Part shown: positions 4,514-47,262 of the stretch, in pieces
Layout of the letters: each line of letters starts with the position of its first letter
How positions within the stretch are numbered: the stretch's first letter is position 1
Source of the DNA: Candidatus Gastranaerophilales bacterium
GTDB lineage: Bacteria; Cyanobacteriota; Vampirovibrionia; Gastranaerophilales; Gastranaerophilaceae
DNA: 64,000 nucleotides
Reading direction: 5' to 3'
NCBI GenBank assembly: GCA_944323265.1
Contig: CALURX010000001.1
Span: 39,430 to 103,429, forward strand
Notes under the pieces: generated by a model
The model's database searches: none
Told to the model about the DNA's origin: nothing
The model's input: the letters and a program-made list of their open reading frames with translations, nothing else
Made by a program: the position numbers and the translations under genes

Positions 4514-5839
4514 TTATTTCTGTCCTTTCAAATTTTTATTCTTATTAATTTTTAATAACGCTGTATATGTAGGAAGTATTGTAATCTCATTCCCCTCAGC
4601 ATGTTTCATATATTCAATTGCCTCATCAATATCAGGGATAATTTTAATATCCTTAATATCAGCATACTTCAACCTGAGCGCCATGTCATTTGCCCGCAGA
4701 CCAGAGACTACAATTTGATTTTTAGCTTCCTTCAAAAGTCCGAAATCTGCGTCCCAAAGCCAAGAAACATCTCTGCCGTCTGCGTAATTATCATTTATTA
4801 TAATCAGAATATTTGAATCTAAATCAACCGTTTTTAGAACTTCATTTGCCCCTATCGGGTTTTTGATAAGTTGTATTAAAGTCCTCTTTCCGCCTAAATA
4901 CTTGACTTCACTTCTGCCAAAAGCTACTTTGAAAGAGGTCAGATAATTTTCAATGTCTTCAATTCCGACTTCCAGGCACAATGAAATTGCCGCAAGAGCA
5001 TTGTAAGCATTAAACAAGCCTTTAATAGGAACCTCAAAGCTTTTACCGTTAATTGTTAAAATAGAATAATCTTTATACAGCATAACATCGGCTTTATATT
5101 TCGGCTCCGGCCTTTTGTACCCGCAATCACAATAATAGTGTCCCTGCTGCGCAAAGAATTTCTTTTCATATTTCAAAGGCTGTCCGCATACACAGTTAAA
5201 AACCTCTTCGGTTGCGGATTTTGTTTTTAAAGATTCATCCGCATAATAGATGTTTTCCATTCCGTAATAGACCTTATTTTTGCCCTCAAAGCTTGCAACT
5301 AACGGATCATCTGCATTTAATAACAAAGTTATTTCAGGTTTTTTGTCGATTCCTTCCTGAATCAGTTTTTTTGTAGTAGCCAATTCTCCGTACCTGTCGA
5401 GCTGGTCGCGGAAAAGATTGGTTACAATAAGATAATCTGCATCTAAATAATTGTATATTTTTGAAAGATATGCTTCATCACTTTCAATAACCGAAAAATC
5501 CGTTAATTTAAATGGATTCAGCTCTGTTGCAAAAGCATTAACAACACCTGTGAGCATGTTTGCGCCCATAGCATTGTTGATTACGGATTTACCACTGCAT
5601 TCAAGCAAATGTGTAACTAAGCCGGAGGTCGTTGTTTTTCCGTTCGTTCCGGTTACGTTAATCTTTGTGTCAATGTATTTGTTACAATGTTTAAGAAAAT
5701 CAGGGCAAATCTTGAGAACCAGCATGCCTATAATTGATGTTCCGGAAGAAAGCCGAGATATTTTTAATGCCGTATATAACGCTTTTGCAAATATTAGCGA
5801 AAAATAAAACCGAAAATTGCCCAAGAAATAATCCTCCAA
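4514..5839 (-). CDS. murT: Lipid II isoglutaminyl synthase subunit MurT (Mur ligase + DUF1727)
   Basis: VTGTNGKTTT, GANM..G, TNLFRDQLDRYGE, CxC...CxCG, KNPIG, DGRDVSWLWDADF, PTYTAL. Confidence 0.88.
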   Translation of the reverse strand: MEDYFLGNFRFYFSLIFAKALYTALKISRLSSGTSIIGMLVLKICPDFLKHCNKYIDTKINVTGTNGKTTTSGLVTHLLECSGKSVINNAMGANMLTGVVNAFATELNPFKLTDFSVIESDEAYLSKIYNYLDADYLIVTNLFRDQLDRYGELATTKKLIQEGIDKKPEITLLLNADDPLVASFEGKNKVYYGMENIYYADESLKTKSATEEVFNCVCGQPLKYEKKFFAQQGHYYCDCGYKRPEPKYKADVMLYKDYSILTINGKSFEVPIKGLFNAYNALAAISLCLEVGIEDIENYLTSFKVAFGRSEVKYLGGKRTLIQLIKNPIGANEVLKTVDLDSNILIIINDNYADGRDVSWLWDADFGLLKEAKNQIVVSGLRANDMALRLKYADIKDIKIIPDIDEAIEYMKHAEGNEITILPTYTALLKINKNKNLKGQK

Positions 5840-5904: not shown

Positions 5905-6276
5905 ATGATTTTTAAAGTTCTTATTACGATTGTTTTTATAGCAGAATTAATTATAACTTTTACGATATTATATTTTCTTTACAAGTTCGATAAGTTTATT
6001 CTTGAAATTGATAGTACGATAGAAACGGTAAAGCCCCAGATAAGAAGTGTTTCGGAATTAGTCAGAAAAATTTCGGAACAAATATACGAACTCACACCGG
6101 TGTGGGTTGATGAGATAAAAAAATCGCTGGAAAATTTACTCCTTGAACAAGCCAAGAGTATAATGACAGGAATTCTGTTTTGGACTATTAATATAAAAGT
6201 AGTAAAACAATTTAGAAAATCTAAAATATTTAAAACAGCGTCTAAGGGTTTATCCCTGCTTCAAAATGTGGTATAA
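5905..6276 (+). CDS. Hypothetical membrane protein
   Basis: N-terminal TM helix followed by coiled-coil; first gene of a plus-strand cluster. Confidence 0.7.
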   Translation: MIFKVLITIVFIAELIITFTILYFLYKFDKFILEIDSTIETVKPQIRSVSELVRKISEQIYELTPVWVDEIKKSLENLLLEQAKSIMTGILFWTINIKVVKQFRKSKIFKTASKGLSLLQNVV

Positions 6277-29666: not shown

Positions 29667-30560
29667 ATGAGCGAAAATATTACAGAATACAGAAATGAAA
29701 ACACTAAAAATATCGATTTGTTATCAACAATAGATATTGTAAGAAAGATTAATGAAGAAGATAAGCTCGTAGCACTGGCAATAGAAGACGAACTTCCTAA
29801 TATTGCAAAAGCCATTGATATGATTGCAAAACAATTTTTGATGGGCGGCAGATTATACTACTTTGGAGCCGGAACATCAGGAAGAATAGGAGTGCTTGAC
29901 GCATCTGAATGTCCGCCGACATTTGGAGCGCCTGCAGATATGGTAACAGGTATAATTGCAGGCGGAGATACTGCTCTTAGAAATGCAGTAGAAGGGGCTG
30001 AAGATAATTTTGATTTAGGAGTAAAAGACGCCTCATGCCTGACAGATATGGATGTTTGCGTTGCAATATCAGCAAGCGGAAATCCTAAATATCTTTTGGG
30101 AGTTCTATCTCAAGCAGAAAAAGCCAACTGCAGAACAATTGCTCTTACCTGTAACCACAATGCGGCTATTCTTGAAGAAGCAGGACTTGGGATTTGCGTA
30201 GAAGTCGGCCCGGAAGTTATTGCAGGTTCAAGCAGAATGAAAGCAGGTACCGTGCAGAAAATGGTACTTAATATGCTTTCAACAGGCGCTATGATAAAAA
30301 TCGGCAAAACTTATGAAAACTTTATGATTGACTTAATGCCGACAAATGAAAAACTAAAAGATAGAGCCATCCGAATTGTTGCAGAGATTGCGGAAGTTAA
30401 TCATGCTACAGCCCTGCAGACACTTTTAGATTGCGGCTGGGAGGTTAAAACAGCTATTCTTATGCTCAAATGCAAGCTTAATAAAGAGCAGGCTGAAACT
30501 GTTTTAAAGAAAAACTGCGGTGTATTAAGAAGAGCTTTGAACAGTCTTACTAAAATTTAA
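29667..30560 (+). CDS. murQ: N-acetylmuramic acid 6-phosphate etherase
   Basis: TEYRN, GAGTSGRIGVLDASECPPTFG, GSSRMKAGTVQKMVLNMLST; start set to ATG 29667 after AAGGAG. Confidence 0.95.
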   Translation: MSENITEYRNENTKNIDLLSTIDIVRKINEEDKLVALAIEDELPNIAKAIDMIAKQFLMGGRLYYFGAGTSGRIGVLDASECPPTFGAPADMVTGIIAGGDTALRNAVEGAEDNFDLGVKDASCLTDMDVCVAISASGNPKYLLGVLSQAEKANCRTIALTCNHNAAILEEAGLGICVEVGPEVIAGSSRMKAGTVQKMVLNMLSTGAMIKIGKTYENFMIDLMPTNEKLKDRAIRIVAEIAEVNHATALQTLLDCGWEVKTAILMLKCKLNKEQAETVLKKNCGVLRRALNSLTKI

Positions 30561-33154
30561 CTAAAATAATCAATAACAGATTTAGTCATTATATCTGCAT
30601 AATTTTCCATAGTTTCAGGATTATTCATCCGCTCTCTGCCTTTGGGTGAACACATAAACGCTACTTCCCAAAGTACGGATGGAATATTCATGTTATTTTC
30701 GGCTTTTTTCATAACTAAATAATTAGCCTTGAGATTTTGTGCGCATTCTTGGTCACTATCAGTTTTGAAATTATTAACCATAATTTCTGCGAGCTTCCTG
30801 CTGTTATCCTTTTTGCCGGTAAAATAAACCTGCGTTCTGTCCTTAGGCGGCTGACCGTTTACCCAGTTTTTCTTATCCTGATTATTTACATGCACAGAGA
30901 TAAACATATCGGCCTTGTTATTCTTGTATCCGAGTTCTTTTGCAATAAGGTTAACGTGGCCTTGCAGGAAAATAACTTTGGCTCCTTGAGCACAGAGGCG
31001 GTCTTTTAGCCTGATCGCATTATCATAATTTATTAACCACTCGTCCTCAAGCCCATTTTGTCCTACAGTTCCAACATCGGTACCAGCTTGTGAATAACCA
31101 TGTCCGGCGTTCACAATAATTGTCTTGCCATTAAGCTTTCCTGATGCTGTGGGGTTAAATACTGCCCTAGTCGCGGCCACTATACCGTTAATTCTATGTT
31201 TTTCTCTTAACAATTCTCTGTTTTGAAGATTTGCTGTTCCACGCATGTCTACAATCTCAGTTGTAATTTTATTTTTATCATCATAAATAATTTTTTTCTT
31301 ATCTGCGGACACCGCATAATCAGAGTCATTATACACAACTTTTATTCTTTGTCCCGGCTCTATTAAATCTGATTCCAGCCCGTTTATATTCTTTAAAGCC
31401 TCAAGCTTTACACCTACTTGTTTTGAAATTTTATAAAGTGTATCTTTGGGCTGAACTGTATAAATATAACCGGGTATTTCGATAATATCTCCTGCATTAA
31501 TTTTGTCAACATCTTCAATATTGTTTAAGTCCTTTAAAATTTCTACAGTAAGCCCAAATTTCTTTGCAATCCTGAATAGATTGTCTCCCGGCTCAATCTT
31601 ATATCCAAGTTTTTGAATTTTAAGCTTTTGTCCCAGCTGAATTTTATTCTTGTCTTGAATATTATTATTTTTACAAATTATATCCTCTGTTGTACCGAAA
31701 GTACGAGCAAGCCTCCAGATACCGTCCCCTTTTTGGACTTCGTGTTCGTACGTTATCACCTGAAACATTCCTTCCTGCTCAATTTTTGTTTTAGGGCTGG
31801 ATAACAGACCTTTAAACTCGGACAAATCCTCTGATTCTACCTCTGCAATTTCATCTTCCTTAGGGCCGCTGCAGCTTCTAAAAAGATTAAATATAAAATT
31901 ACCGATAGCCGCAAAACCGGCTTTTATTCCATCCCATACTCTTGACCAGAAGCCTTTCTTTTGAGGTTTTGTTTCATTGTTTTCAGTCTTAGGTACTTGA
32001 ATTGTATCTGCAGGTTGTACAGATATTGTATCACTAGTAACTATCGGTGCTACAGAAGAAGTTTTCTCTATAGTAGAAGATTTAATATTCTTTAAGAACG
32101 GTACATTCAAGCTGCTTCCGATAGAAATTGATTCCGGATTCCGATTAACTCGTTTAAATTCTTCATAAAACTCTTTAAACGTAACATCATAAGTATTATC
32201 AAGTGAATCATATATTTTTTTTGCAACAGCAAAAACTCCCTTACCTTTAAAAGAATCATCTACTGTAAATTTCCAAGAGCCGGCACTTTTTGGCTCGGAG
32301 GAGATTTCACCTTTTGTAAATTGTTCATATATTTTATCAAGCTCTGTTGTATCTTTCTTATTCTTTTTATGGCACTCAACTGCTTTGTTATAGCAGGATT
32401 TAATAGCTTCTTTTGCCTCATCCAATTCTTTACCTGTTAAGTCTCTTGATGCCAGAATCATTCTATTTAAACTTCTTCGGTACAAACCAGGGTCTTCAAC
32501 TTTGTCAGCGTCAGACTTGCCTGAATATACATAGGCTAAATTCGCAATAACAGTAGAATAATCCTTGTTTTTTATGGCATTCATCAATACTTTATTTTTG
32601 CTAATTTTACTTAAACCCTTGTTATAATTAAGATCAATTAATCCCTCTTTGATTGAGGATGGTAAGTTTTCATAAGTATTTTTGCCAATCCTTCTGTTCA
32701 GAAGATTCTTTACTTCTTTAGAATAATTTTGGAGTTTTTTGCAGAAATTTGAATAAGCAGTTTCCTGTGTTCTTTTATTTTTAGTAAGTTCGCCAAAACC
32801 ATTGGTGTAAGTGCCGAATTTATCTTTATACGGCACTGTAATAGCTTCATAGTAGTAATACGGGTCGCCCTCGTAATATTTCATCAAATCTATAAGATGG
32901 CTCTGTGCCTTTTTAATAGCAGTATTGTCATCTTTAAGAAGCGACGGAGAGTATGATTTAATACCCATTTCATCAGCAGTACAGCGCAAGGTATCGATAA
33001 TATCCTCCGAAAGAAGCTGCTTTTTCACAATGCTGTCTGCAGGAGCTTCAAGAGTATATTCAAAAGTTTTTATGCTGTCAGGTTTTGTTGTTGCAGCTGT
33101 TGAAACGTTTGTAGTGTCTTTTATCTCATATATATTATGAACAGAAATACTCAT
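30557..33154 (-). CDS. Multidomain peptidoglycan hydrolase: GH24-like lysozyme + LysM repeats + Amidase_3
   Basis: PYKDKFGTYTNGFG...LIDLNYNKG; HEVQKGDGIWRLA, YKIEPGDNLFRIA, YTVQPKDTLYKIS; IIVNAGHG, DMFISVHVN, SVLWEVAFM; start set to MSISV (33154). Confidence 0.85.
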   Translation of the reverse strand: MSISVHNIYEIKDTTNVSTAATTKPDSIKTFEYTLEAPADSIVKKQLLSEDIIDTLRCTADEMGIKSYSPSLLKDDNTAIKKAQSHLIDLMKYYEGDPYYYYEAITVPYKDKFGTYTNGFGELTKNKRTQETAYSNFCKKLQNYSKEVKNLLNRRIGKNTYENLPSSIKEGLIDLNYNKGLSKISKNKVLMNAIKNKDYSTVIANLAYVYSGKSDADKVEDPGLYRRSLNRMILASRDLTGKELDEAKEAIKSCYNKAVECHKKNKKDTTELDKIYEQFTKGEISSEPKSAGSWKFTVDDSFKGKGVFAVAKKIYDSLDNTYDVTFKEFYEEFKRVNRNPESISIGSSLNVPFLKNIKSSTIEKTSSVAPIVTSDTISVQPADTIQVPKTENNETKPQKKGFWSRVWDGIKAGFAAIGNFIFNLFRSCSGPKEDEIAEVESEDLSEFKGLLSSPKTKIEQEGMFQVITYEHEVQKGDGIWRLARTFGTTEDIICKNNNIQDKNKIQLGQKLKIQKLGYKIEPGDNLFRIAKKFGLTVEILKDLNNIEDVDKINAGDIIEIPGYIYTVQPKDTLYKISKQVGVKLEALKNINGLESDLIEPGQRIKVVYNDSDYAVSADKKKIIYDDKNKITTEIVDMRGTANLQNRELLREKHRINGIVAATRAVFNPTASGKLNGKTIIVNAGHGYSQAGTDVGTVGQNGLEDEWLINYDNAIRLKDRLCAQGAKVIFLQGHVNLIAKELGYKNNKADMFISVHVNNQDKKNWVNGQPPKDRTQVYFTGKKDNSRKLAEIMVNNFKTDSDQECAQNLKANYLVMKKAENNMNIPSVLWEVAFMCSPKGRERMNNPETMENYADIMTKSVIDYFS

Positions 33155-33156
33155 TC

Positions 33157-33194
33157 TTTTTATATCCCTCATTTATTTTTATATCCCTCATTTA
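33157..33194. repeat. Perfect 19-bp tandem duplication of the ribosome-binding region
   Basis: TTTTTATATCCCTCATTTA twice (33157-33175, 33176-33194). Confidence 0.95.
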
Positions 33195-35268: not shown

Positions 35269-36000
35269 TTGCTTATGATGTTAGAAAAAATTGAAAGACT
35301 GCAGGTTATTTCTTTGGGATTACTTATCGGTATTGCGCTTGTAATCTCAACTCAAATGGTATCGTCTTCGATATCAAAAAATGTTATTTCCGTTACAGGT
35401 TCAGCTTATGAGATTGTAAAATCTGATTCAGGAACGCTTAATTTTGATATTGTTGTAAAAAGGGCTAACAAAAAAGAGGCATATCTTGCAGTACAGGAAC
35501 AAACAAAAATTGTAGAAAAATATTTAAAAGATAAGAATATTAAAAATATTGAAAGAAAAACAGTACACGGGTTCTTTACATATAAAAGAGACGCAAGAAC
35601 CGGCGCTTACACTGACACTCCGGAAGCTTATAACATTCTCCAGCCGATTGCAATCAGCTCTGATAATGTAGAGTTAATCAAAGAAATCTCTACAGATATT
35701 ACAGGTTTAATTAATCAGGGCGTTGATATAAACGTATCTACACCATCTTATGATTATTCAAAACTGCCTGATTTAAAAGTAACTTTGTTAGAAAAAGCTT
35801 CAACCGATGCTAAAAACAGAGCAGCTTCTATGCTAAAACCTACCCATAACTCTGTAGGCCAGATTCAATCAGTAAGAATGGGCGTTTACCAGATTACACC
35901 GGTTGATTCAACAAACGTTTCTGATATGGGTATAAATGATACCTCTACTATAGACAAAAAGGTTACGGCTGTTGCTAATGTATCGTTTAAAATAAAGTAA
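35269..36000 (+). CDS. SIMPL-domain (DUF541) protein
   Basis: ISVTGSA, DAKNRA, GVYQITP, IDKKVTAV. Confidence 0.88.
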   Translation: MLMMLEKIERLQVISLGLLIGIALVISTQMVSSSISKNVISVTGSAYEIVKSDSGTLNFDIVVKRANKKEAYLAVQEQTKIVEKYLKDKNIKNIERKTVHGFFTYKRDARTGAYTDTPEAYNILQPIAISSDNVELIKEISTDITGLINQGVDINVSTPSYDYSKLPDLKVTLLEKASTDAKNRAASMLKPTHNSVGQIQSVRMGVYQITPVDSTNVSDMGINDTSTIDKKVTAVANVSFKIK

Positions 36001-36025
36001 TATAAATTATGAATGCATACTATTA

Positions 36026-36053
36026 ATGTAACTCAATACATATTCTGTTACAT
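36026..36053 (-). repeat. dif-like recombination site A (left inverted repeat)
   Basis: Reverse complement ATGTAACAGAA-TATGTA-TTGAGTTACAT; 24/28 identical to site B. Confidence 0.8.
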
Positions 36054-36133
36054 TAGACACTTTATTCTACCATATAATTTAGTATTGGCGCAATATGTAA
36101 GAATTTTTCTTTTTGTTTAATTTTGCCCTTTCA

Positions 36134-36168
36134 TTTTATCTTCTTTTGCGCAGAAAAAGAAGATAAAA
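36134..36168. terminator. 14-bp A/T-rich hairpin inside the IR-flanked segment
   Basis: TTTTATCTTCTTTT-gcgcaga-AAAAGAAGATAAAA. Confidence 0.5.
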
Positions 36169-36199
36169 CTGAAGCAAAAGTAAAAAAATGCTGTTATTT

Positions 36200-36229
36200 T
36201 TGACATTTTTGCTATTACTCAAATATGCT
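36200..36229 (+). promoter_or_regulatory. Sigma70-type promoter facing the pilin/adhesin gene
   Basis: TTGACA (36200-36205) -N18- TATGCT (36224-36229). Confidence 0.6.
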
Positions 36230-36242
36230 TTGTTATTGGCTT

Positions 36243-36361
36243 ACACAGAATCTGCCTCGCACGCGATTATTTGCTTCGCTCATACGCGTGCGAGGCAGAT
36301 TAAAGCTTTGTATAAGAAGACTGATTTCTATACAAATACGTCTGGCCTGCAATCCCTGTGT
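36243..36361 (+). ncRNA. Candidate structured 5' leader RNA (multi-stem junction)
   Basis: P1 ACACAG/CTGTGT; 17-bp perfect stem 36249-36265/36285-36301; 8-bp stem TTTGTATA/TATACAAA. Confidence 0.4.
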
Positions 36362-36393
36362 TCTCAGTGCTAATTCCCTATATGTTTACCCAA

Positions 36394-36421
36394 AAGTAAC
36401 AGAATATGTATTATGTTACTT
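36394..36421 (+). repeat. dif-like recombination site B (right inverted repeat)
   Basis: AAGTAACAGAA-TATGTA-TTATGTTACTT, 31 bp before GTG 36453; right arm resembles the XerD arm TTATGTTAAAT. Confidence 0.8.
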
Positions 36422-36452
36422 TTAATGCTATATAAAAGAAAGAGAGGAAGAA

Positions 36453-38087
36453 GTGAGAGAGAGACAAGGCTTTTCATTAATGGAGATGATGATTGTGCTG
36501 CTTATAATGGCGATAATAGCCGCAGCAACAGCACCTATTGTAAGTAAGAAGATGACCAAGAGTGCATCAGGAACAAGCGCAACCCCCTGGGTATTTACGG
36601 GAGAAGGAAAAAATATTGCCTACAATATGGGCGGTTTGAGTAATGCTACTGCTATAATCGGTGCAGCAAAGGTTCCTGAAGGAACAAATGCAAGACTTTA
36701 TATAGACTGCGGCGATAATACCGCTCAAATAGCCTTAGGAAGCGGAGATACAGCTGCGAATATTTTGGCAGACCCTGTAGGGAATCGTGTTGCTATATAT
36801 AGTGCAGAAAGTAACCTCTCAGTATCCAGAGATTCCGTAGCAATTGGTATGGGGCAAGGCTCTCTAGGTACAGCAGGCGTTGTATCAATTGGCTCAAAAT
36901 CCAGTGCCAGTGATACATATAATACCGCAATAGGTTATTCAGCAAACGCCAGTGGCCAATATTCAACAGCAATTGGAGCGTCTACTAAGGCTTCTAGTAC
37001 TTATTCAACTGCAATCGGTAATGAATCAGAGGTAACAGGGGAATTTAGTTTGGCAAGCGGTGCAAGAGCTAAAGCTGCAAAGGGATGTGTCGCAGTGGGG
37101 GCAAAAGCACAAGCAACCGGTTCACAAAGTATAGCTATAGGCGGCGGCTCTCCTACAGGCAATGGACCTGTTTCAACTCATACTAATTCTATAGCAATAG
37201 GAACTTTGGCAAAGGTAACTAATGTAGATTCTATAGCAATAGGTAATCAAGCGACTGTTTCAGGGGACAATTCTGTTGCAATAGGCTCTTTACCTTCTGC
37301 AGCGGCCAATTTGGCTATTGCAGTAGGTCAAAAGGCACAGGCTTCAGGATTTAATTTCATCGCAATTGGTTCTGGCAGTAATGCTGATTATCCGAGGGCA
37401 ACAAAGAGAGGAGCTGTAGCGATAGGTTATAATGCTTTTGCCACAAATGAACAATCTTATGCTATAGGAAACAACGCAAAAACAACTGCAAATAACCAAA
37501 TTGTCTTAGGAAGCCGTGATTATACCGTATATATTCCGGAAAATCTTATTGTGATGGGAACAACTATGCTTGGCGGTACCCCAGGAAGTCTTACGCATAT
37601 TAGAGAAGAACATTCTAATCATAATATTTTGACTGTTTATGGTGTAAGTGACAGTACAATGCGTAGTAACGATAAACACTATAGCGGGGTAACAATAGGA
37701 GGCATAACCTTCACCAGATATAGCTCTGACAGACGATTAAAGAATATCGGTAAAAAATATACAGCAGGGCTTGATGAACTTAAAAAACTTGATTTTTATC
37801 ACTATACTTTCAAAAAAGATAAAAATAAAATACCTCATGTTGGTGTAATAGCACAGGATTTACAAAAGGTATTTCCTGATGCTGTTACAAAAGCTGAAGA
37901 TGGTTATTTGCAAATCCGGTTTGAAGATATGTTTTATGCTGTTATCAATGCCGTTAAAGAGCTTGATAATAAACTAAGCAGCATTATCGCAAAAAATAAC
38001 GAACAGGATAAAATTATAAAAGCGCAGCAACAGACCATTGGGGAACTTGAAAAACGTCTAGCTAAGCTGGAAAAAGAAAAATCTTAG
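36453..38087 (+). CDS. Prepilin-type N-terminus + YadA-like head repeats + peptidase S74 tail-fibre chaperone + coiled-coil
   Basis: QG|FSLMEMMIVLLIMAIIAA (G-1, F1, E5); about 16 S.AIG repeats ending NQIVLG; SSDRRLKNIG...GVIAQDLQKVFPDAV...LQIRFEDM; C-terminal heptads. Confidence 0.9.
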   Translation: MRERQGFSLMEMMIVLLIMAIIAAATAPIVSKKMTKSASGTSATPWVFTGEGKNIAYNMGGLSNATAIIGAAKVPEGTNARLYIDCGDNTAQIALGSGDTAANILADPVGNRVAIYSAESNLSVSRDSVAIGMGQGSLGTAGVVSIGSKSSASDTYNTAIGYSANASGQYSTAIGASTKASSTYSTAIGNESEVTGEFSLASGARAKAAKGCVAVGAKAQATGSQSIAIGGGSPTGNGPVSTHTNSIAIGTLAKVTNVDSIAIGNQATVSGDNSVAIGSLPSAAANLAIAVGQKAQASGFNFIAIGSGSNADYPRATKRGAVAIGYNAFATNEQSYAIGNNAKTTANNQIVLGSRDYTVYIPENLIVMGTTMLGGTPGSLTHIREEHSNHNILTVYGVSDSTMRSNDKHYSGVTIGGITFTRYSSDRRLKNIGKKYTAGLDELKKLDFYHYTFKKDKNKIPHVGVIAQDLQKVFPDAVTKAEDGYLQIRFEDMFYAVINAVKELDNKLSSIIAKNNEQDKIIKAQQQTIGELEKRLAKLEKEKS

Positions 38088-38111
38088 CCGCTCACTTCGG
38101 CTATCCTTTCG

Positions 38112-38140
38112 AGTGCTGGAAATTTCCAGCACTTTTTTTT
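38112..38140 (+). terminator. Intrinsic terminator after the adhesin gene
   Basis: AGTGCTGGAA-at-TTCCAGCACT followed by T run. Confidence 0.88.
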
Positions 38141-38192
38141 GACTTTTATAATTACACAAGTATATAATATTATAAGTTGAGAGGATGGTTGT

Positions 38193-38861
38193 ATGAAAAA
38201 AATAGCAGCTTTATTAATATTTGCAGGGCTTTCGCTTACCCCTGTATGGGCAAAGAAGTATGAACCTGTGCCTTCAAATGTACAGCTGCCTGCAAAATAT
38301 ACTCAGGAATATATTGACAGTATTTCTGATGAATACAAAAATATTTCAGATGAACAGATTTTTCATGTCGCTTTAGATATGCTTAAAGATACAACAGGAG
38401 AGTTTTCCAGAAAGGCGCTTCTTGGTTATAACGTGACACAATATCCTGTAAAGGTTATGTTCAAGGATTTGTCTGAAATCAATGAAGCGTATTCTTCTTT
38501 TGACGCTATTGGCTGGAAGAAAAAAGGGAAATTGTATGTTTATATAAACCCTAAGCATGAGTACGCTCCACCTGGAGCTTTAGCAGCTCTGCTGGCACAT
38601 GAGGCAATTCATCAGGATGAGTATAATTCATTGAGTGAAGAAACTTATGCATGGACAATGGAGGCTGTTGTTTGGTCTGAGATTCTGCAAAAGTATCCTG
38701 AATCAAACAATTTGGAATCAGCACTTGTTACAAGAGAAAATGTCCTAAAACAATTGCTTGATAAGGGGGCTCATACTAATAAGTACATTAAGAAAACTGT
38801 TTATGCCAATGAAGGTTACAAGAATCTTCAGCTAACATCTCCAGGATTTGATTATAAATAA
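38193..38861 (+). CDS. Secreted hypothetical protein with HExxH (putative zinc metallopeptidase)
   Basis: Signal peptide ending VWA; LAHEAIHQD...EE. Confidence 0.7.
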   Translation: MKKIAALLIFAGLSLTPVWAKKYEPVPSNVQLPAKYTQEYIDSISDEYKNISDEQIFHVALDMLKDTTGEFSRKALLGYNVTQYPVKVMFKDLSEINEAYSSFDAIGWKKKGKLYVYINPKHEYAPPGALAALLAHEAIHQDEYNSLSEETYAWTMEAVVWSEILQKYPESNNLESALVTRENVLKQLLDKGAHTNKYIKKTVYANEGYKNLQLTSPGFDYK

Positions 38862-42817: not shown

Positions 42818-43444
42818 TTATTTGATTAAGTTAACTTGCATTGCAAGCAGAACTGCCTGAGTTCTATTCGTAACTTTCAGCTTTTTAAATATACTATTTA
42901 AATGTGTTTTTACCGTAACATCTCTTACGCATAATTTGTCTGCAATTTCCTGATTGCTTGCGCCTTTTGCGACAAGAGCCAAAACTTCTTTTTCCTTAGG
43001 TGTAAGAGCATCAATATTAACATCTTTATTAAGCGTTTTTTCACCCTTAGGAGCAGCTTCCTGCTGCCATTTGCAGCGTCTTAACACAGCTTCGATTCGT
43101 GCTAACAGGTTTGGTAATATAAACGGTTTAACGATATAGTCATCCGCGCCAATCTTAAGTCCTGAAACGACTTTCTGATCTTCGCTGACAGCCGTAATCA
43201 TAATAACCGGAATATATTTTAAATCCTTGTTGCTCCTAATAGCCTTTAAGGTATCCCATCCGTCCATATTAGGCATCATGACATCCAGCAATATTAAATC
43301 AAACGCTTCTTTTTTTTCTGTTAAGATTTTCAGCGCCTCAAGTCCGTCTTCTGCAACCGTAACGTCATAGCCGTACATTGGCAAGGCATCTTTTAAATAT
43401 TTAGGATTATCATCTACAACCAGTATAGAGGCTATTCCGCCCAT
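42818..43444 (-). CDS. Response regulator, REC + LuxR HTH
   Basis: LVVDDN, LLDVMMPNMDG, DYIVKPF, LTPKEKEVL...NRTQA. Confidence 0.93.
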   Translation of the reverse strand: MGGIASILVVDDNPKYLKDALPMYGYDVTVAEDGLEALKILTEKKEAFDLILLDVMMPNMDGWDTLKAIRSNKDLKYIPVIMITAVSEDQKVVSGLKIGADDYIVKPFILPNLLARIEAVLRRCKWQQEAAPKGEKTLNKDVNIDALTPKEKEVLALVAKGASNQEIADKLCVRDVTVKTHLNSIFKKLKVTNRTQAVLLAMQVNLIK

Positions 43445-43447
43445 AAT

Positions 43448-44095
43448 TTACACCAATCTTTCTTTTAACGCTTTTAGCGCTGCTTGTAGTCTATCATCTA
43501 CTTCAAGTTTTTGCAAGATACTTGCAACATGAGCTTTTGTTGTATTAATACTTACAAATAGTTCATTTGCAATTTCAATATTGCTGCAACCCTCTGTAAT
43601 AAGCTTTAGAATTTGTTTTTCTCTTGAAGTTAAGCCATAGTCTTTTTCAGGTTTTTGAACCTCTTTGTTATCAGATTTAGTCGCTGCCTCAAGTACAATG
43701 TGCGCAATAGCAGGATCAAACCAGGCCGCGCCATCAAGGACAGATTGAACAACCTGTATAAGATTTTTAGGGTTAATCTCTTTTGAGCAGTATGCATTTG
43801 CACCGGCTTTAAGGCTGCTCAAAACCTCACTCTCATCGTTATGAGAAGTCAAAATAACTATTTTAATATCCTTATTAAAGGACTTAATCTTTTTGCAAGC
43901 CTCAATTCCGTTCATTCCCGGAAGCCCTAAATCCATAATTATGAGATTAATTTCGTTTTCATTTACAATGCTTATACCCTTTTCAGCGGATTCGGCTTCA
44001 TAAATTGTGCCAACAAAATCACAAGCCTCAAAGGCTGTTTTTAATCCAAATCGTGTAAGTTCATGATCTTCTACTATTAAAATATTACTCTTCAT
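43448..44095 (-). CDS. Response regulator, NarL/LuxR family
   Basis: ILIVEDHELTR, MDLGLPGMNG, LTSREKQIL...DDRLQA; start set to MKSNI (44095). Confidence 0.93.
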   Translation of the reverse strand: MKSNILIVEDHELTRFGLKTAFEACDFVGTIYEAESAEKGISIVNENEINLIIMDLGLPGMNGIEACKKIKSFNKDIKIVILTSHNDESEVLSSLKAGANAYCSKEINPKNLIQVVQSVLDGAAWFDPAIAHIVLEAATKSDNKEVQKPEKDYGLTSREKQILKLITEGCSNIEIANELFVSINTTKAHVASILQKLEVDDRLQAALKALKERLV

Positions 44096-45599
44096 AGATA
44101 CTTTGTCCCGGATGCACATCTGCTGCGTAATCTGAGTTCAATCTGGAGCATTTTATCAGTGATTGATTGGCAAGATCCACATCACCCTTTGCTCTTAAAA
44201 CCAGACTTAAATAATAATAATATTTAAAGTTATTTACGTCAATATAATAAGAATTATTTAAATAAGTCGTTGCCATGGTATAATTCTGGTCTCTAATCGC
44301 CAAATTAGCCAATCCAAGCCATATATCGTTATTTGTAATGTCAATTGCTGCAACTCGCGGCAAATAGTAATCTGCTTTTTGAGGGAACACCTTAAGTGAT
44401 TCTACAAGCAAATCTTCATCATACTGATATTTTTTGAGCAGTTTTTCATACATTTTTTTTGACTTCTTGTCTTTTTCAAGCGCAAGATAGGTCTTTGCTA
44501 TTCCAACAGAAGGCTCTGCATCTTTAGTAAGCCTTTTTGCTTTTTTATAATATTTTAAAGCATCGTCATACTTACGGTTGTCGTAACTTAAATCTGCTAA
44601 AGTAATTGCGGCCAAGTAATTATCATTATCTTCCCTGAAAGCTCGGCCTGCAAATTCCTGCGCCTTTAAAGGCTCATCATTTTCATAATAGATTCGCCCC
44701 AGAAGCGAGAATATTAAAGGGCTGTACTGTTTTGCCTGTAATACAGCTGATTGAAGGACTTTTGTTGCAAGGAGGCTCTTATCCTGCAGGTGATAATAAT
44801 ACGCAAGATGGTAATCCTTCAGTGGTTCGGCCTTGGAGGTTTTATATAATACATATTCTTCTACAGAACGAACTTTTTTCTGGAAATCTATAGTTACAAA
44901 GTTTGTTTTCTTAATCTTTTCCAGAACTTTAAGTGCCTGCTTTGGTTTATTTAAATCTGCCAAAACTTTTGCTTTTAAGGACAGATAATTGATATTCTTA
45001 TCGTTTTCGACAATTGCATTATTTATATATTTAAGCGCCTGCTGCAAATCATTGGATTTGTAAAATCCAAGCGCTATGAGATAGTTTTTATAATCACTTT
45101 CTTCTGCCTGAACACTGTTCAGAAGCTCCGATGTGGTTTCTATTGCCATATTGTTATACATAATATTAGAATAAGCATCCGCAAGATAAATTATATCTTT
45201 CTGTTTCAGCATTCCGGAAGGATAATAATAGTTTCTTATATCCTGAACATAAGAAGACGTAAAAGCATTATTATCCAGCTTGTTTATTAAAGAATCGGAT
45301 AAATCAAAAAATCCGCACTCTGCCATCTTCATAGAATAAACAAGAAATACATAGTCATCATGCGCAGCTCTTTTAATTAAATCATTAAAATCATCATACG
45401 AGGCCTTTACGTTATTCTGCGCAAACCTGTTTTCCGCAGATGCGTACTTTGCTTTAACAAAGTTATCTTTAATAACCATATCCATATTAGCAACAGTAGT
45501 CTCCGCCTTAACCTGGAGCGGCTTCATTCCGGTTTCATTTGCTGCCAGAACCGGGCTTGAAAGTGCTATTAATGCTAATATAACTATATATTTACTCAT
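44085..45599 (-). CDS. Secreted tetratricopeptide repeat protein
   Basis: Signal peptide ending VLA; multiple TPR-like helical repeats. Confidence 0.85.
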   Translation of the reverse strand: MSKYIVILALIALSSPVLAANETGMKPLQVKAETTVANMDMVIKDNFVKAKYASAENRFAQNNVKASYDDFNDLIKRAAHDDYVFLVYSMKMAECGFFDLSDSLINKLDNNAFTSSYVQDIRNYYYPSGMLKQKDIIYLADAYSNIMYNNMAIETTSELLNSVQAEESDYKNYLIALGFYKSNDLQQALKYINNAIVENDKNINYLSLKAKVLADLNKPKQALKVLEKIKKTNFVTIDFQKKVRSVEEYVLYKTSKAEPLKDYHLAYYYHLQDKSLLATKVLQSAVLQAKQYSPLIFSLLGRIYYENDEPLKAQEFAGRAFREDNDNYLAAITLADLSYDNRKYDDALKYYKKAKRLTKDAEPSVGIAKTYLALEKDKKSKKMYEKLLKKYQYDEDLLVESLKVFPQKADYYLPRVAAIDITNNDIWLGLANLAIRDQNYTMATTYLNNSYYIDVNNFKYYYYLSLVLRAKGDVDLANQSLIKCSRLNSDYAADVHPGQSIYEE

Positions 45600-47262
45600 G
45601 CTCTAAATCTATACCTACATAATATTTGTTAAAAACTTCTAACAACTTGTTACTACAATTATTTACTATTGAGTAATATAAATCAAGTAGGTTGTATTTA
45701 TCCAATGTAACTTTATCCTCATCATCAATAGTCATATGAGTTTCTGTGACAAATACTCCAACGATTTTACTCAATTTTATTAACAAAAATTTATCAACCA
45801 CTTTTGGATCAAAATGCGAGCCAGCGCCATTCATTATAATCTCAATGACTTTTTCAATCGGCATCTTATCACGATAGTGACGCTTTGAAGTTATTGCGTC
45901 AAATACGTCCGAGACTGCTAAAATTCTTCCACCAAAAGGTATTTCTTCTCCTTTGAGATGCCTGTAATAACCGGTACCATCATATTTTTCGTGATGTGAG
46001 CAGGCAATCTCCGTGATTTCTTCAAAATCTTTAGAAGTATGAATCTTCTCTAATATATGATGTGTAATTTCCACATGCTCTTGAATATGCTTGTACTCTT
46101 CAGGCGTAAGCTTGCCTTCTTTTTGCAATACAGAATCTCTAATGCCGATTTTCCCTATATCATGAAGAGCTGCAGCCTTTTCAAGCACATACAAATCATG
46201 TTTTTCCATACCAAATTCCTGAGCAATAAGAGTAGCAAACATTCTTACTCTGGAAGAATGACCGGCTGTAATTTTGTCTCTGGCATCGATAGAAGCTGCA
46301 AGAGTGTCTATAAAGCTGTCCAAAATAACTTTTTGCTCTTCTAAGAGTTTTTGCTGTCTTTCAAACAACTGGGCATTTTCCAATGATATACCGGCGCTTG
46401 AGGCTATTGCTACAAGCAAATCTTCATCATCCGGTGTAAAATACTCGTCGAATTTATTAAGAACCTGAAAAACACCTATTATTTCCTGATTATAGTTTTT
46501 TATGGGCATACAGAGTATTGTTTTCGTCTTATAGCCTGTCTGTTTATCTACATCAGAATTAAATCTATCGTCATTATAAGCATCTTTTATATTAATAGTT
46601 TCGCCGGTTTGTACAACATGCCCCGCAATACCTCTGTCCGCGGGAATCCTCAATTCTTTGGTATCCAGACCTGTAGCAACTTTTGAATAAAGTTCATTGT
46701 GCTCTTTGTCATACAGAAAAACCGTACACCTGTCTGCATTAAGAGCTGTTTTTGTTTCTTCAGCAATAGTTTTAATTAAAGAATCAATATTCTTTTCAGC
46801 TGCAACTGCCTGGCCAATATTAACGAGAGAAATTAGCGGATCTTTTGTCTGTGTACTATGGCTTCCGTAATGACTTATGGGCGGACATTTTAACATTGAA
46901 TTGAGTTTTTCAAAAAAATCAGTTTTTTGATACTTAATAGAGAGTTTTCTGGCTTTATTGTAGTTTATTGCATATAACGTTGTATTTTTCTCGCTAAAAT
47001 TTACAAATCCTAAAATCATTTCATGAAAAATATGCGTCAGAGGATCTTTTGTTTGGTCCACAAGAAAAGCTGTATCATTCATAAATTGGTAAAAAGTATC
47101 ATAATCTTTTTTCAAAAAAGCAATTAACGCCAGCATTGTCAGGCAGATTGCTGTGTCGTCCTGATATATTTCTTTATGTTTTTCTATACTTTGTTTTACT
47201 TCGTCATACTCGCCATTGAGTATTTCAGATACTGATTCATAAATGAAATTCTCTAAGGTCAT
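45592..47262 (-). CDS. GAF + HD-GYP domain protein (putative cyclic dinucleotide phosphodiesterase)
   Basis: LNADRCTVFLYD, GIAGHV, NKF...F; HDIGKIGI, HHEKYDGTGYY, VSDVFDAITSKRHYR. Confidence 0.9.
   Translation of the reverse strand: MTLENFIYESVSEILNGEYDEVKQSIEKHKEIYQDDTAICLTMLALIAFLKKDYDTFYQFMNDTAFLVDQTKDPLTHIFHEMILGFVNFSEKNTTLYAINYNKARKLSIKYQKTDFFEKLNSMLKCPPISHYGSHSTQTKDPLISLVNIGQAVAAEKNIDSLIKTIAEETKTALNADRCTVFLYDKEHNELYSKVATGLDTKELRIPADRGIAGHVVQTGETINIKDAYNDDRFNSDVDKQTGYKTKTILCMPIKNYNQEIIGVFQVLNKFDEYFTPDDEDLLVAIASSAGISLENAQLFERQQKLLEEQKVILDSFIDTLAASIDARDKITAGHSSRVRMFATLIAQEFGMEKHDLYVLEKAAALHDIGKIGIRDSVLQKEGKLTPEEYKHIQEHVEITHHILEKIHTSKDFEEITEIACSHHEKYDGTGYYRHLKGEEIPFGGRILAVSDVFDAITSKRHYRDKMPIEKVIEIIMNGAGSHFDPKVVDKFLLIKLSKIVGVFVTETHMTIDDEDKVTLDKYNLLDLYYSIVNNCSNKLLEVFNKYYVGIDLEHE

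Follow-up and report, generated by a model that had tools for sequence, protein, structure and literature searches.

A prepilin-type N-terminus joined to a YadA-like, S74-terminated fiber in Gastranaerophilales: a candidate family of trimeric, promoter-switched adhesins

A 64,000-nucleotide stretch of DNA from a Candidatus Gastranaerophilales bacterium (hereafter the window) carries at 36453..38087 (+) an open reading frame (ORF) of 544 aa with a GTG start, the target gene of this study. Its product joins a class III (prepilin-type) N-terminus, YadA-like head repeats, and a Peptidase S74 (intramolecular chaperone) domain in a single chain. With confidence a little above even, we read the gene as encoding a Gastranaerophilales-specific, multi-copy trimeric beta-roll fiber adhesin in which a class III N-terminus stands in place of an autotransporter anchor, and which would be folded, cut, and displayed by the full mechanism set out below. 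Gastranaerophilales are widespread, uncultured, non-photosynthetic gut relatives of Cyanobacteria. To our knowledge, nothing is known experimentally of their surface, and the family to which the target gene belongs is probably their main variable adhesin repertoire.

Architecture of the target protein

All three Pfam families assigned to the protein scored above their curated cut-offs: N_methyl at residues 1-26 (29.6 bits; cut-off, 21.2), YadA_head in eight stretches (84 bits; cut-off, 25), and Peptidase_S74 (PF13884) at residues 425-479 (59.7 bits; cut-off, 22), the last covering profile positions 1-58 of 58. The NCBIfam model TIGR02532 (IV_pilin_GFxxxE) was also above its cut-off. Neither YadA_anchor nor any further Pfam family matched the target protein, even at an E value of <=1. 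The original prediction for this gene had described a class III signal (G|FSLME, where the bar marks the predicted cut), about 16 tandem repeats of ~14 aa ending in NQIVLG, an SSDRRLKNI motif near 37722 that opens an S74 domain, a terminal coiled coil, and the lack of an autotransporter beta-barrel. Each of these features was recovered here, with the repeats counted at 16 units of 14 aa, the motif starting at nt 37722, and the S74 match running from residue 425. Since the same three-part architecture recurs in hundreds of homologs, it is not a chance combination.

The ORF has a Shine-Dalgarno sequence of its own (GAGAGGA, 36442..36448, +), located 5 nt 5' of the start, and its parts follow one another on the plus strand. 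The class III leader MRERQG (36453..36470), with a prepilin-peptidase cut predicted after Gly6 from profile matches, is followed by an alpha1N-type hydrophobic helix, FSLMEMMIVLLIMAIIAAATAPIVSK (36471..36548), which was assigned from the alignment and the model and contains mature Phe1, Glu5, and Pro22. A Ser/Thr/Gly-rich linker of low model confidence (36549..36614), which holds an invariant P45-W46 motif, then leads into a conserved N-proximal beta-rich domain of degenerate beta-roll turns (residues ~55-124; 36615..36824; entropy, 0.8-1.6 bits). The 16 YadA-like head repeats, a predicted left-handed beta-roll, span residues ~125 to ~359 (36825..37529) and terminate in ANNQIVLG, the NQIVLG lying at nt 37494-37511. 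Beyond them lie a conserved neck, TVYIPENL, and a hypervariable tip segment (residues ~366-424; 37530..37724; entropy, 3.2-3.3 bits), the S74 domain with predicted catalytic residues Ser425 and Lys430 (37725..37928), and a C-terminal coiled coil of about seven heptads, which together with the stop codon occupies 37929..38087. A hairpin resembling an intrinsic terminator, with a 10-bp stem and a T-run behind it, is found 24 nt past the stop (38111..38140, +). A scan of 35500-38500 against Rfam returned only sub-threshold chance matches.

The fold was examined in an AlphaFold2 monomer model with a mean predicted local distance difference test (pLDDT) score of 76. In the model, the N-terminal part forms a helix at residues 9-26 only, and this is followed by the low-confidence linker to residue ~54 and then by the beta-rich region. 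A beta-roll with 16 regularly spaced strands extends from ~130 to ~370 at a pLDDT of 90-98, and a long helix at 493-543 keeps one heptad register throughout, its core positions including N515, Q518, and Q525. The best Protein Data Bank matches of the model, obtained with Foldseek, were the heads of trimeric autotransporter adhesins (TAAs), namely BpaC (1.5e-8), CbpF, EibD, YadA, BoaA, and UspA1. The best matches among viral structures were phage and giant-virus fiber proteins with YadA-like repeats and/or S74. Profile searches returned no match to a pilin domain beyond the N-terminal ~40 residues, and since the model shows no globular pilin domain, the target is not a canonical pilin. As modeled, the protein is a class III signal and alpha1N helix fused directly to a fiber.

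A lineage-specific, multi-copy family

The distribution of homologous sequences places the target in a large, lineage-specific, multi-copy family and shows it not to be a singular chimera. At least 119 full-length relatives, with 40-60% identity and the same architecture throughout, came out of a search of 5.8 billion proteins, and an exhaustive search of 1.84 billion cluster representatives (50% identity clusters) returned 603 clusters at an E value of <=1e-30. In one-genome-per-species collections, 439 family loci were found. Among 80 fetched loci, all named hosts are Candidatus Gastranaerophilales, Melainabacteria, or Vampirovibrio metagenome-assembled genomes (MAGs) from gut or rumen. The host of the window is itself an inhabitant of the chicken gut. 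The architecture first read from the one gene is also repeated within genomes: several MAGs are multi-copy, and two carry seven copies each, counting the fetched loci alone. In a Cyanobacteria-bacterium MAG, UBA1186 (locus L068), two members stand in tandem, at 6013 and 7728 (+).

Both ends of the chain are conserved, and variability is highest in the tip segment ahead of the predicted cut. Column entropy in the family alignment was 0.3-0.8 bits at residues 1-60 and 440-500, about 2.2 in the head, and 3.2-3.3 at residues 381-420. Across the family, the head is 123-372 residues long and the tip segment 58-272. Metagenome contigs covered the gene at a depth of 3-5x over the two conserved end modules only, and the assemblies break there, which is the pattern expected from several paralogs or strains with common end cassettes. 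Giant relatives with many YadA-like stretches also occur (P0133, 6235 aa; P0184, 3614 aa; P0251, 5067 aa). In P0251, the match to the S74 module falls at the far C-terminal end (4896-5004), and thus very long S74-terminated fibers exist too.

The S74 domain and predicted self-cleavage

In the family alignment of 120 sequences, the target motif S424-S425-D-R-R-L-K430-N-I is almost fixed. Asp426, Lys430, and Asn431 are present in all 120 sequences and Ser425 in 118, the other two having Cys, while the residue preceding Ser425 is hypervariable. Over its last 130 aa, the protein matches the far C-terminal ends of more than 25 tail-fiber PHROGs. The PHROG families phrog_5668 and phrog_1980 span the repeats and S74 together, and the repeats-plus-S74 cassette is therefore phage-like. 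Furthermore, a profile of the family C-terminal module matched the ICA domain of MyRF (7dc3; E = 3.6e-6), with SDRRLK aligned on (S587A)DLRAK592, as well as tail-fiber structures with SDERLK (8jov) or SSDRRIK (6f45) and phi29 gp12.

In MyRF, S587 and K592, which correspond to S911 and K916 of endoNF, are indispensable for cleavage; the cut falls between P586 and S587 and occurs in the trimer only, and trimerization is driven by a C-terminal triple coiled coil (PMC8326128). Alignment to MyRF and endoNF would place the scissile bond of the target between S424 and S425, N-terminal to the catalytic Ser, rather than at the Ser-Asp site originally proposed. Cleavage there would free a chaperone of ~120 residues (~14 kDa) and leave a mature chain of ~418 residues with a hypervariable distal end. 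Because the S74 catalytic motif is conserved and aligned with proven dyads, a trimeric, C-terminally chaperoned, self-cleaving fiber is the natural reading of the protein, and trimerization with self-cleavage is well supported by homology.

The prepilin-type N-terminus and possible display on a type IV filament

The N-terminus of the target reads MRERQG|FSLME, with a short basic leader, Gly at -1, Phe1, and Glu5, and continues in an alpha1N stretch (FSLMEMMIVLLIMAIIAAATAP22) of ~21 hydrophobic residues closed by the helix-breaking Pro22. Across the 120-sequence alignment, mature Glu5 is found in 118/118 sequences and Pro22 in 120/120, and P45-W46 is invariant. Leaders of 5-9 aa predominate. 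Gene callers often start relatives at an internal MEMM; at the DNA level, [G/A]|FSLMEMM is kept in frame behind a short basic leader in every family ORF of the loci. The assigned start codon is GTG or TTG in about half of the family genes, usage that is compatible with a low-abundance product. The pattern of conservation indicates that Gly or Ala at -1, Phe1, Glu5, and Pro22 are under strong purifying selection. In type IV pilins, Glu5 is needed for subunit-subunit contacts in the filament and not for leader cleavage, and its strict conservation here therefore points to assembly with other subunits. The strict conservation of both Glu5 and Pro22 likewise argues that the N-terminus does more than anchor the protein.

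Other prepilin-type proteins occur in the lineage. One of them, A|FTLAELLIVLGI..., is 496 aa long, contains a PEPEPEP linker, and is encoded at L001 5187-6677 (-), the same as L008 1208-2698 (-), with a site pair of the kind described below upstream of it. A group of 230-265-aa proteins, G|FTLAEVLITLGIIGVVAALTAP... (L018 9305-10060, L024, and L031), may represent the ordinary pilins or pseudopilins of the lineage.

Genomes of the lineage encode type IV filament machinery, a secretin included, and the window encodes none. A MAG with seven or more paralogs carries a Secretin / MshEN-T2SSE / T2SSF operon (L040), another family-carrying MAG has a PilT-like ATPase (L029), and pilA, B, C, D, and T have been reported for Gastranaerophilus termiticola (PMC5877343). 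Neighbors of the target gene in the window are housekeeping genes (IscS/NifU, MurT, MutL, LpxK/KdsB/LpxC/LpxD, GpsA, an S41 peptidase, BioF, and ribosomal proteins); the Lpx genes among them (LpxK/LpxC/LpxD) mark the host as a diderm. Relatives likewise sit among chromosomal housekeeping genes. No recurrent neighbor or operon partner was found across 81 loci, the largest neighbor cluster, a flagellin-like one, being present in 5 of them.

We propose the following route. The alpha1N-type helix would insert the precursor in the inner membrane with the remainder in the periplasm, as the type of signal suggests. By homology to phage fibers, MyRF, and the Bdellovibrio fibers discussed below, the S74 domain and coiled coil would then align three chains and nucleate folding of the tip and beta-roll from the C- to the N-terminal end, taking over the job of the beta-barrel anchor of autotransporter adhesins. 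Once the protein is trimeric, the conserved Ser425 and Lys430 would cut between S424 and S425, free the chaperone, and expose the hypervariable tip. Prepilin peptidase would remove MRERQG and methylate Phe1. Finally, the three alpha1N helices, on flexible linkers of ~20 residues, would enter a type IV filament machine and act there as a complex that forms the filament tip or primes assembly, and the fiber would be carried through the secretin as proposed here by analogy with the CofB/TcpB trimer; this last step is the least certain. Since none of the machinery is encoded in the window and no family gene sits within a pilin operon, filament display is an inference, though a plausible one.

Several observations weigh against this route. 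There is no pilus machinery in the 64-kb window, and a second pilin-like ORF was not found in it, even with a loose motif. No family gene lies within a pilin operon, and only one of the 81 loci is near a secretin-PilB-PilC cluster. A type IV pilin has a long alpha1 (~53 aa) packed on a globular beta-sheet domain, the part that is normally packed into filaments; the model shows neither alpha1C nor such a domain. The residue at -1 is Ala, not Gly, in 54 of 80 family N-termini (Gly in the other 26), and Ala at this position is suboptimal for classical prepilin peptidases. The tip and the S74 part are of low confidence in the monomer model, as would be expected where an intertwined obligate trimer is modeled as one chain. 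The original prediction of a trimeric fiber displayed on a type IV pilus or pseudopilus by three pilin anchors stands in part: the three modules are real and the catalytic motif is conserved, while the protein is not a canonical pilin.

The main rival reading is that the class III signal is an export or anchoring device only, so that the trimer is processed by the peptidase and not built into a filament, being held by alpha1N or brought to the surface otherwise. The missing globular pilin domain, the scatter of family genes outside pilin operons, and the frequent Ala at -1 all fit such an arrangement, as do further large prepilin-type proteins of the lineage that are unlike pilins in appearance, among them the 496-aa A|FTLAELLIV protein encoded behind a site pair of the same kind. 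Archaeal "bindosome" sugar-binding proteins, which have class III signals without being pilins, offer an analogy. However, Glu5 is invariant (118/118), a rod of about 10-15 nm would be too short to emerge from a diderm cell if fixed in its inner membrane, and the hypervariable tip and multi-copy repertoire look like those of a surface-exposed molecule. We therefore consider an export or anchoring role alone rather doubtful.

A periplasmic trimer tethered to the inner membrane by an uncleaved signal-anchor, with a structural or envelope role and no adhesive one, would account for a window without pilus machinery, a short helix, and processing that is only predicted. Retention of the full prepilin signature, including Pro22 and the short basic leader, across hundreds of sequences argues otherwise, and a hypervariable distal tip, variable repeat number, at least seven paralogs, and switch-like upstream elements would be unexpected for periplasmic structural proteins, making this explanation improbable. 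Lastly, although YadA-like repeats with S74 form a recurring fiber cassette of phages and giant viruses, we give almost no credence to a prophage or tailocin tail-fiber gene, or to a trimeric autotransporter that has degenerated and is now without its anchor, given the housekeeping neighbors (on which, with the viral result, a prophage origin was rejected), the lack of any full-length family member among 2.9 M viral contigs, the prepilin N-terminus conserved throughout the family, the intact ORF with its own Shine-Dalgarno sequence and terminator, and a C-terminus formed by a complete S74 domain and coiled coil instead of a truncated stalk. Those viral contigs match the S74 module only, at 28-45% identity, and many of the alignments begin at residue 424 or 425.

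Paired recombinase-type sites upstream of the gene

Nearly the whole upstream intergenic region of the target gene is bracketed by a pair of recombinase-type sites. The distal site, AATGTAAC-TCAAT-ACAT-ATTCT-GTTACATT (36025..36054), consists of palindromic arms on either side of an asymmetric 4-nt core, much as lox/FRT-type sites do. The gene-proximal site (36393..36422) is an inverted copy of the distal one and lies about 30 nt 5' of the GTG start. The cores of the two are reverse-complementary, ACAT in the distal and ATGT in the proximal site. Both are 30 nt long (AAWGTAAC-N14-GTTACWTT), and the 64 kb contain no other GTAAC-N14-GTTAC site. Between them lies a putative invertible promoter segment of ~340 nt (36055..36392), which contains a promoter-like TTGACA-18-TATGCT at 36200-36229 (+). 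This AT-rich segment also holds a hairpin whose GC-rich stem pairs perfectly over 17 bp and closes a 19-nt loop (36249-36301; DNA fold z = -7.5); no T-run is found behind it on either strand.

The paired arrangement precedes 14 of 70 family genes, the target included, with sites of the form GTAACNNAAT-core-ATTNNGTTAC; the other loci are L001-L003, L007-L009, L011, L013, L015, L017, L018, L029, and L063. Of 30 such sites in about 971 kb of lineage DNA, 26 precede family genes, and the remaining four form two pairs, one of them directly upstream of the 496-aa prepilin-type gene. The cores are reverse-complementary in all 14 family pairs and in the two further pairs. Four kinds of core were found at family pairs (ACTC/GAGT, ACAT/ATGT, ACCC/GGGT, and ACCT/AGGT), and since each kind is matched, the cores covary. 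In 9 of the 14 pairs, a site lies about 72-85 nt from the Phe1 codon. A 15-19-nt end motif abuts the gene-proximal site in five loci and, as its reverse complement, the distal site in L007.

The same type of site occurs widely outside the lineage. A metagenome scan with the exact arms added at least 120 stretches from other gut bacteria of higher GC content (loci L128-L247). The commonest form, in Clostridia-like gut bacteria, is a site pair around a segment of ~770 nt that encodes a tyrosine recombinase of ~200 aa (PF00589) and stands beside csrA and a flagellin gene (for example, L163 1013-1829 compared with L194 8909-9725; L135 1631-4281; and L146 11238-13676). This element lies directly upstream of csrA and the flagellin gene, and because otherwise identical loci carry it in both orientations, it has the look of a flagellar inversion switch that encodes its own recombinase. 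A variant with a shorter interior of ~115 nt is found beside a recombinase gene in L136, L151, and L143. In the metagenome set, 33 pairs of loci have the same flanks and an inverted interior. In L163 and L194, the pair checked by hand, identity is 99-100% across flanks and sites, and the 769-nt interiors agree, at 100%, only when one is read as the reverse complement of the other, from which it follows that this type of site inverts DNA in nature.

Collectively, the anatomy of the sites in the lineage and the inversion seen for the site type elsewhere suggest that expression of family genes is phase variable through inversion of a promoter segment, which we regard as probable. In the proposed route, copies of the fiber would differ in repeat number and tip, and inversion of the segment between the two recombinase sites would probably turn their expression on and off.

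Two results count against a switch at the target gene. Contigs of four chicken-gut metagenome runs show one orientation at the window locus and no joints at which the strand changes, in a check made on contigs, which drop minority forms. In addition, neither motif matching nor tblastn turned up a recombinase in the window or in Melainabacteria (lineage) loci amounting to about 1 Mb. On the other side stand the reversed position of the end motif in L007 and, in 9 of 12 elements including the window's, an outward-reading promoter-like end on the side opposite the gene. Consensus promoter scoring of the interiors was ambiguous and gives no firm ON/OFF call; and in blastn comparisons of inter-site segments between paralogs, all matches had the same orientation save one of 38 nt. 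The paired sites might alternatively be the ends of elements resembling miniature inverted-repeat transposable elements. We disfavor this explanation, against which stand the near-exclusive position of the sites upstream of prepilin-type genes, their matched cores, the distance of about 72-85 nt to the Phe1 codon in 9 of 14 pairs, and the presence of the same site type around segments that demonstrably invert. The paired sites suggest phase variation in the phylum of Gastranaerophilales, and they link that phylum to a recombinase-site system common to the flagellar switches of other gut bacteria.

Comparison with known systems

Proteins of this architecture have been catalogued before. Raynaud et al. 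surveyed "modular pilins" in InterPro, with modules presumed to be exposed at the tip, and their Dataset S1 lists IPR012902-IPR030392 (29 proteins), IPR012902-IPR008640-IPR030392 (4 proteins), and a version with two heads (3 proteins) (PMC8179133). Like modular pilins, the target has an N-terminal class III motif followed by domains that are not specific to pilus biology; PilB, the defining example of that group, consists of a complete pilin module and an extra module, whereas the model of the target has only alpha1N and a linker. Raynaud et al. read S74 as a possible peptidase function of pili (PMC8179133). We read it instead as a self-removing trimerization chaperone, which implies an obligate homotrimer. 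The architecture is thus already catalogued, uncharacterized, and, in our reading, misinterpreted. We found no paper that combines an intramolecular chaperone or S74 domain with pilins.

The closest parallels for a trimer carried by pilin-type N-termini are the homotrimeric minor pilins CofB and TcpB (PMC6048534, PMC5207764), which initiate and cap type IVb pili and likewise combine three such N-termini with a flexible linker, a C-terminal adhesive trimer module, and a position at the pilus tip; in enterotoxigenic Escherichia coli, the initiator complex found at the type IVb pilus tip is a CofB trimer (PMC6048534). CofB, however, has a full pilin domain, trimerizes through beta-repeat and H-type lectin domains without proteolysis, and is encoded by a single gene in a pilus operon, whereas the target has no pilin domain, an S74-chaperoned beta-roll, and many scattered paralogs.

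A second parallel is provided by the MAT (mosaic adhesive trimeric) fibers of Bdellovibrio, which comprise 21 paralogs, 13 of them ending in S74 with SDxxxK, and for which self-cleavage is proven and blocked by S782A (Caulton et al. 2024, PMC10769870). They too are cellular, multi-paralog, phage-like trimeric fibers with a conserved beta-rich N-domain after the signal peptide, variable tips, and S74. The likeness is an organizational analogy only: MAT fibers are ~1000 aa long, with an ordinary (Sec-type) signal peptide, shafts built of beta-helices, and an unknown surface anchor, in contrast to the prepilin signal, YadA-like beta-roll, and ~500 aa of the target, which comes from a different phylum. 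Because of the CofB/TcpB and MAT precedents, in which homotrimeric tip pilins and multi-paralog S74 fibers are already established, the "unusual assembly route" of the original prediction was an overstatement.

With TAAs (type Vc) such as YadA, BpaC, EibD, UspA1, and CbpF, the target shares head repeats and a predicted left-handed beta-roll. It differs in having neither a C-terminal 12-stranded beta-barrel anchor nor a Sec-type signal, and its polarity is reversed, the anchor being N-terminal and the free end C-terminal, as in phage fibers. In TAAs, the C-terminal barrel sets the register of the trimer. Phage fibers and tailspikes (endoNF, T5 pb1, and phi29 gp12) and MyRF have in common with the target an S74 domain with a Ser/Lys dyad, located C-terminal to a trimeric beta structure and followed by a coiled coil. 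In contrast to the phage proteins, the target is a cellular gene product in which a membrane-anchoring, prepilin-type N-terminus replaces the virion-attachment domain, and its folding would be periplasmic.

Set against these systems, the fiber could represent a new way of arming a type IV filament: an obligate YadA-like homotrimer without a pilin domain, folded and self-cut by S74, whose bare alpha1N helices prime or cap the filament, and which is encoded by at least seven promoter-switched paralogs with the site type of flagellin switches. We put this forward tentatively, as a possibility well short of likely. More generally, the family would show that an S74 chaperone can stand in for the autotransporter barrel in nucleating the trimer of a YadA-type head, that a class III signal can carry an obligate trimer, and that "S74" in pilin-like proteins denotes a folding device and not, as now tabulated, an enzymatic function of pili.

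Neighboring genes

Downstream of the target gene, at 38193-38861 (+), lies a gene for a 222-aa protein with a signal-peptide-like N-terminus, a HEAIH (HExxH) motif, and no Pfam match; it may be a small secreted metalloprotease and is not conserved beside other family members. Genes for two LuxR-type response regulators, a TPR protein, and a GAF-HD (HD-GYP-like) protein are clustered at 42818-47262 (-) and may make up a signaling module, with no evident relation to the target gene. In the housekeeping context on the other side of the gene, 30557-33172 (-) encodes an 871-aa multi-domain peptidoglycan hydrolase with a phage-lysozyme-like domain, three LysM repeats, and an Amidase_3 domain.

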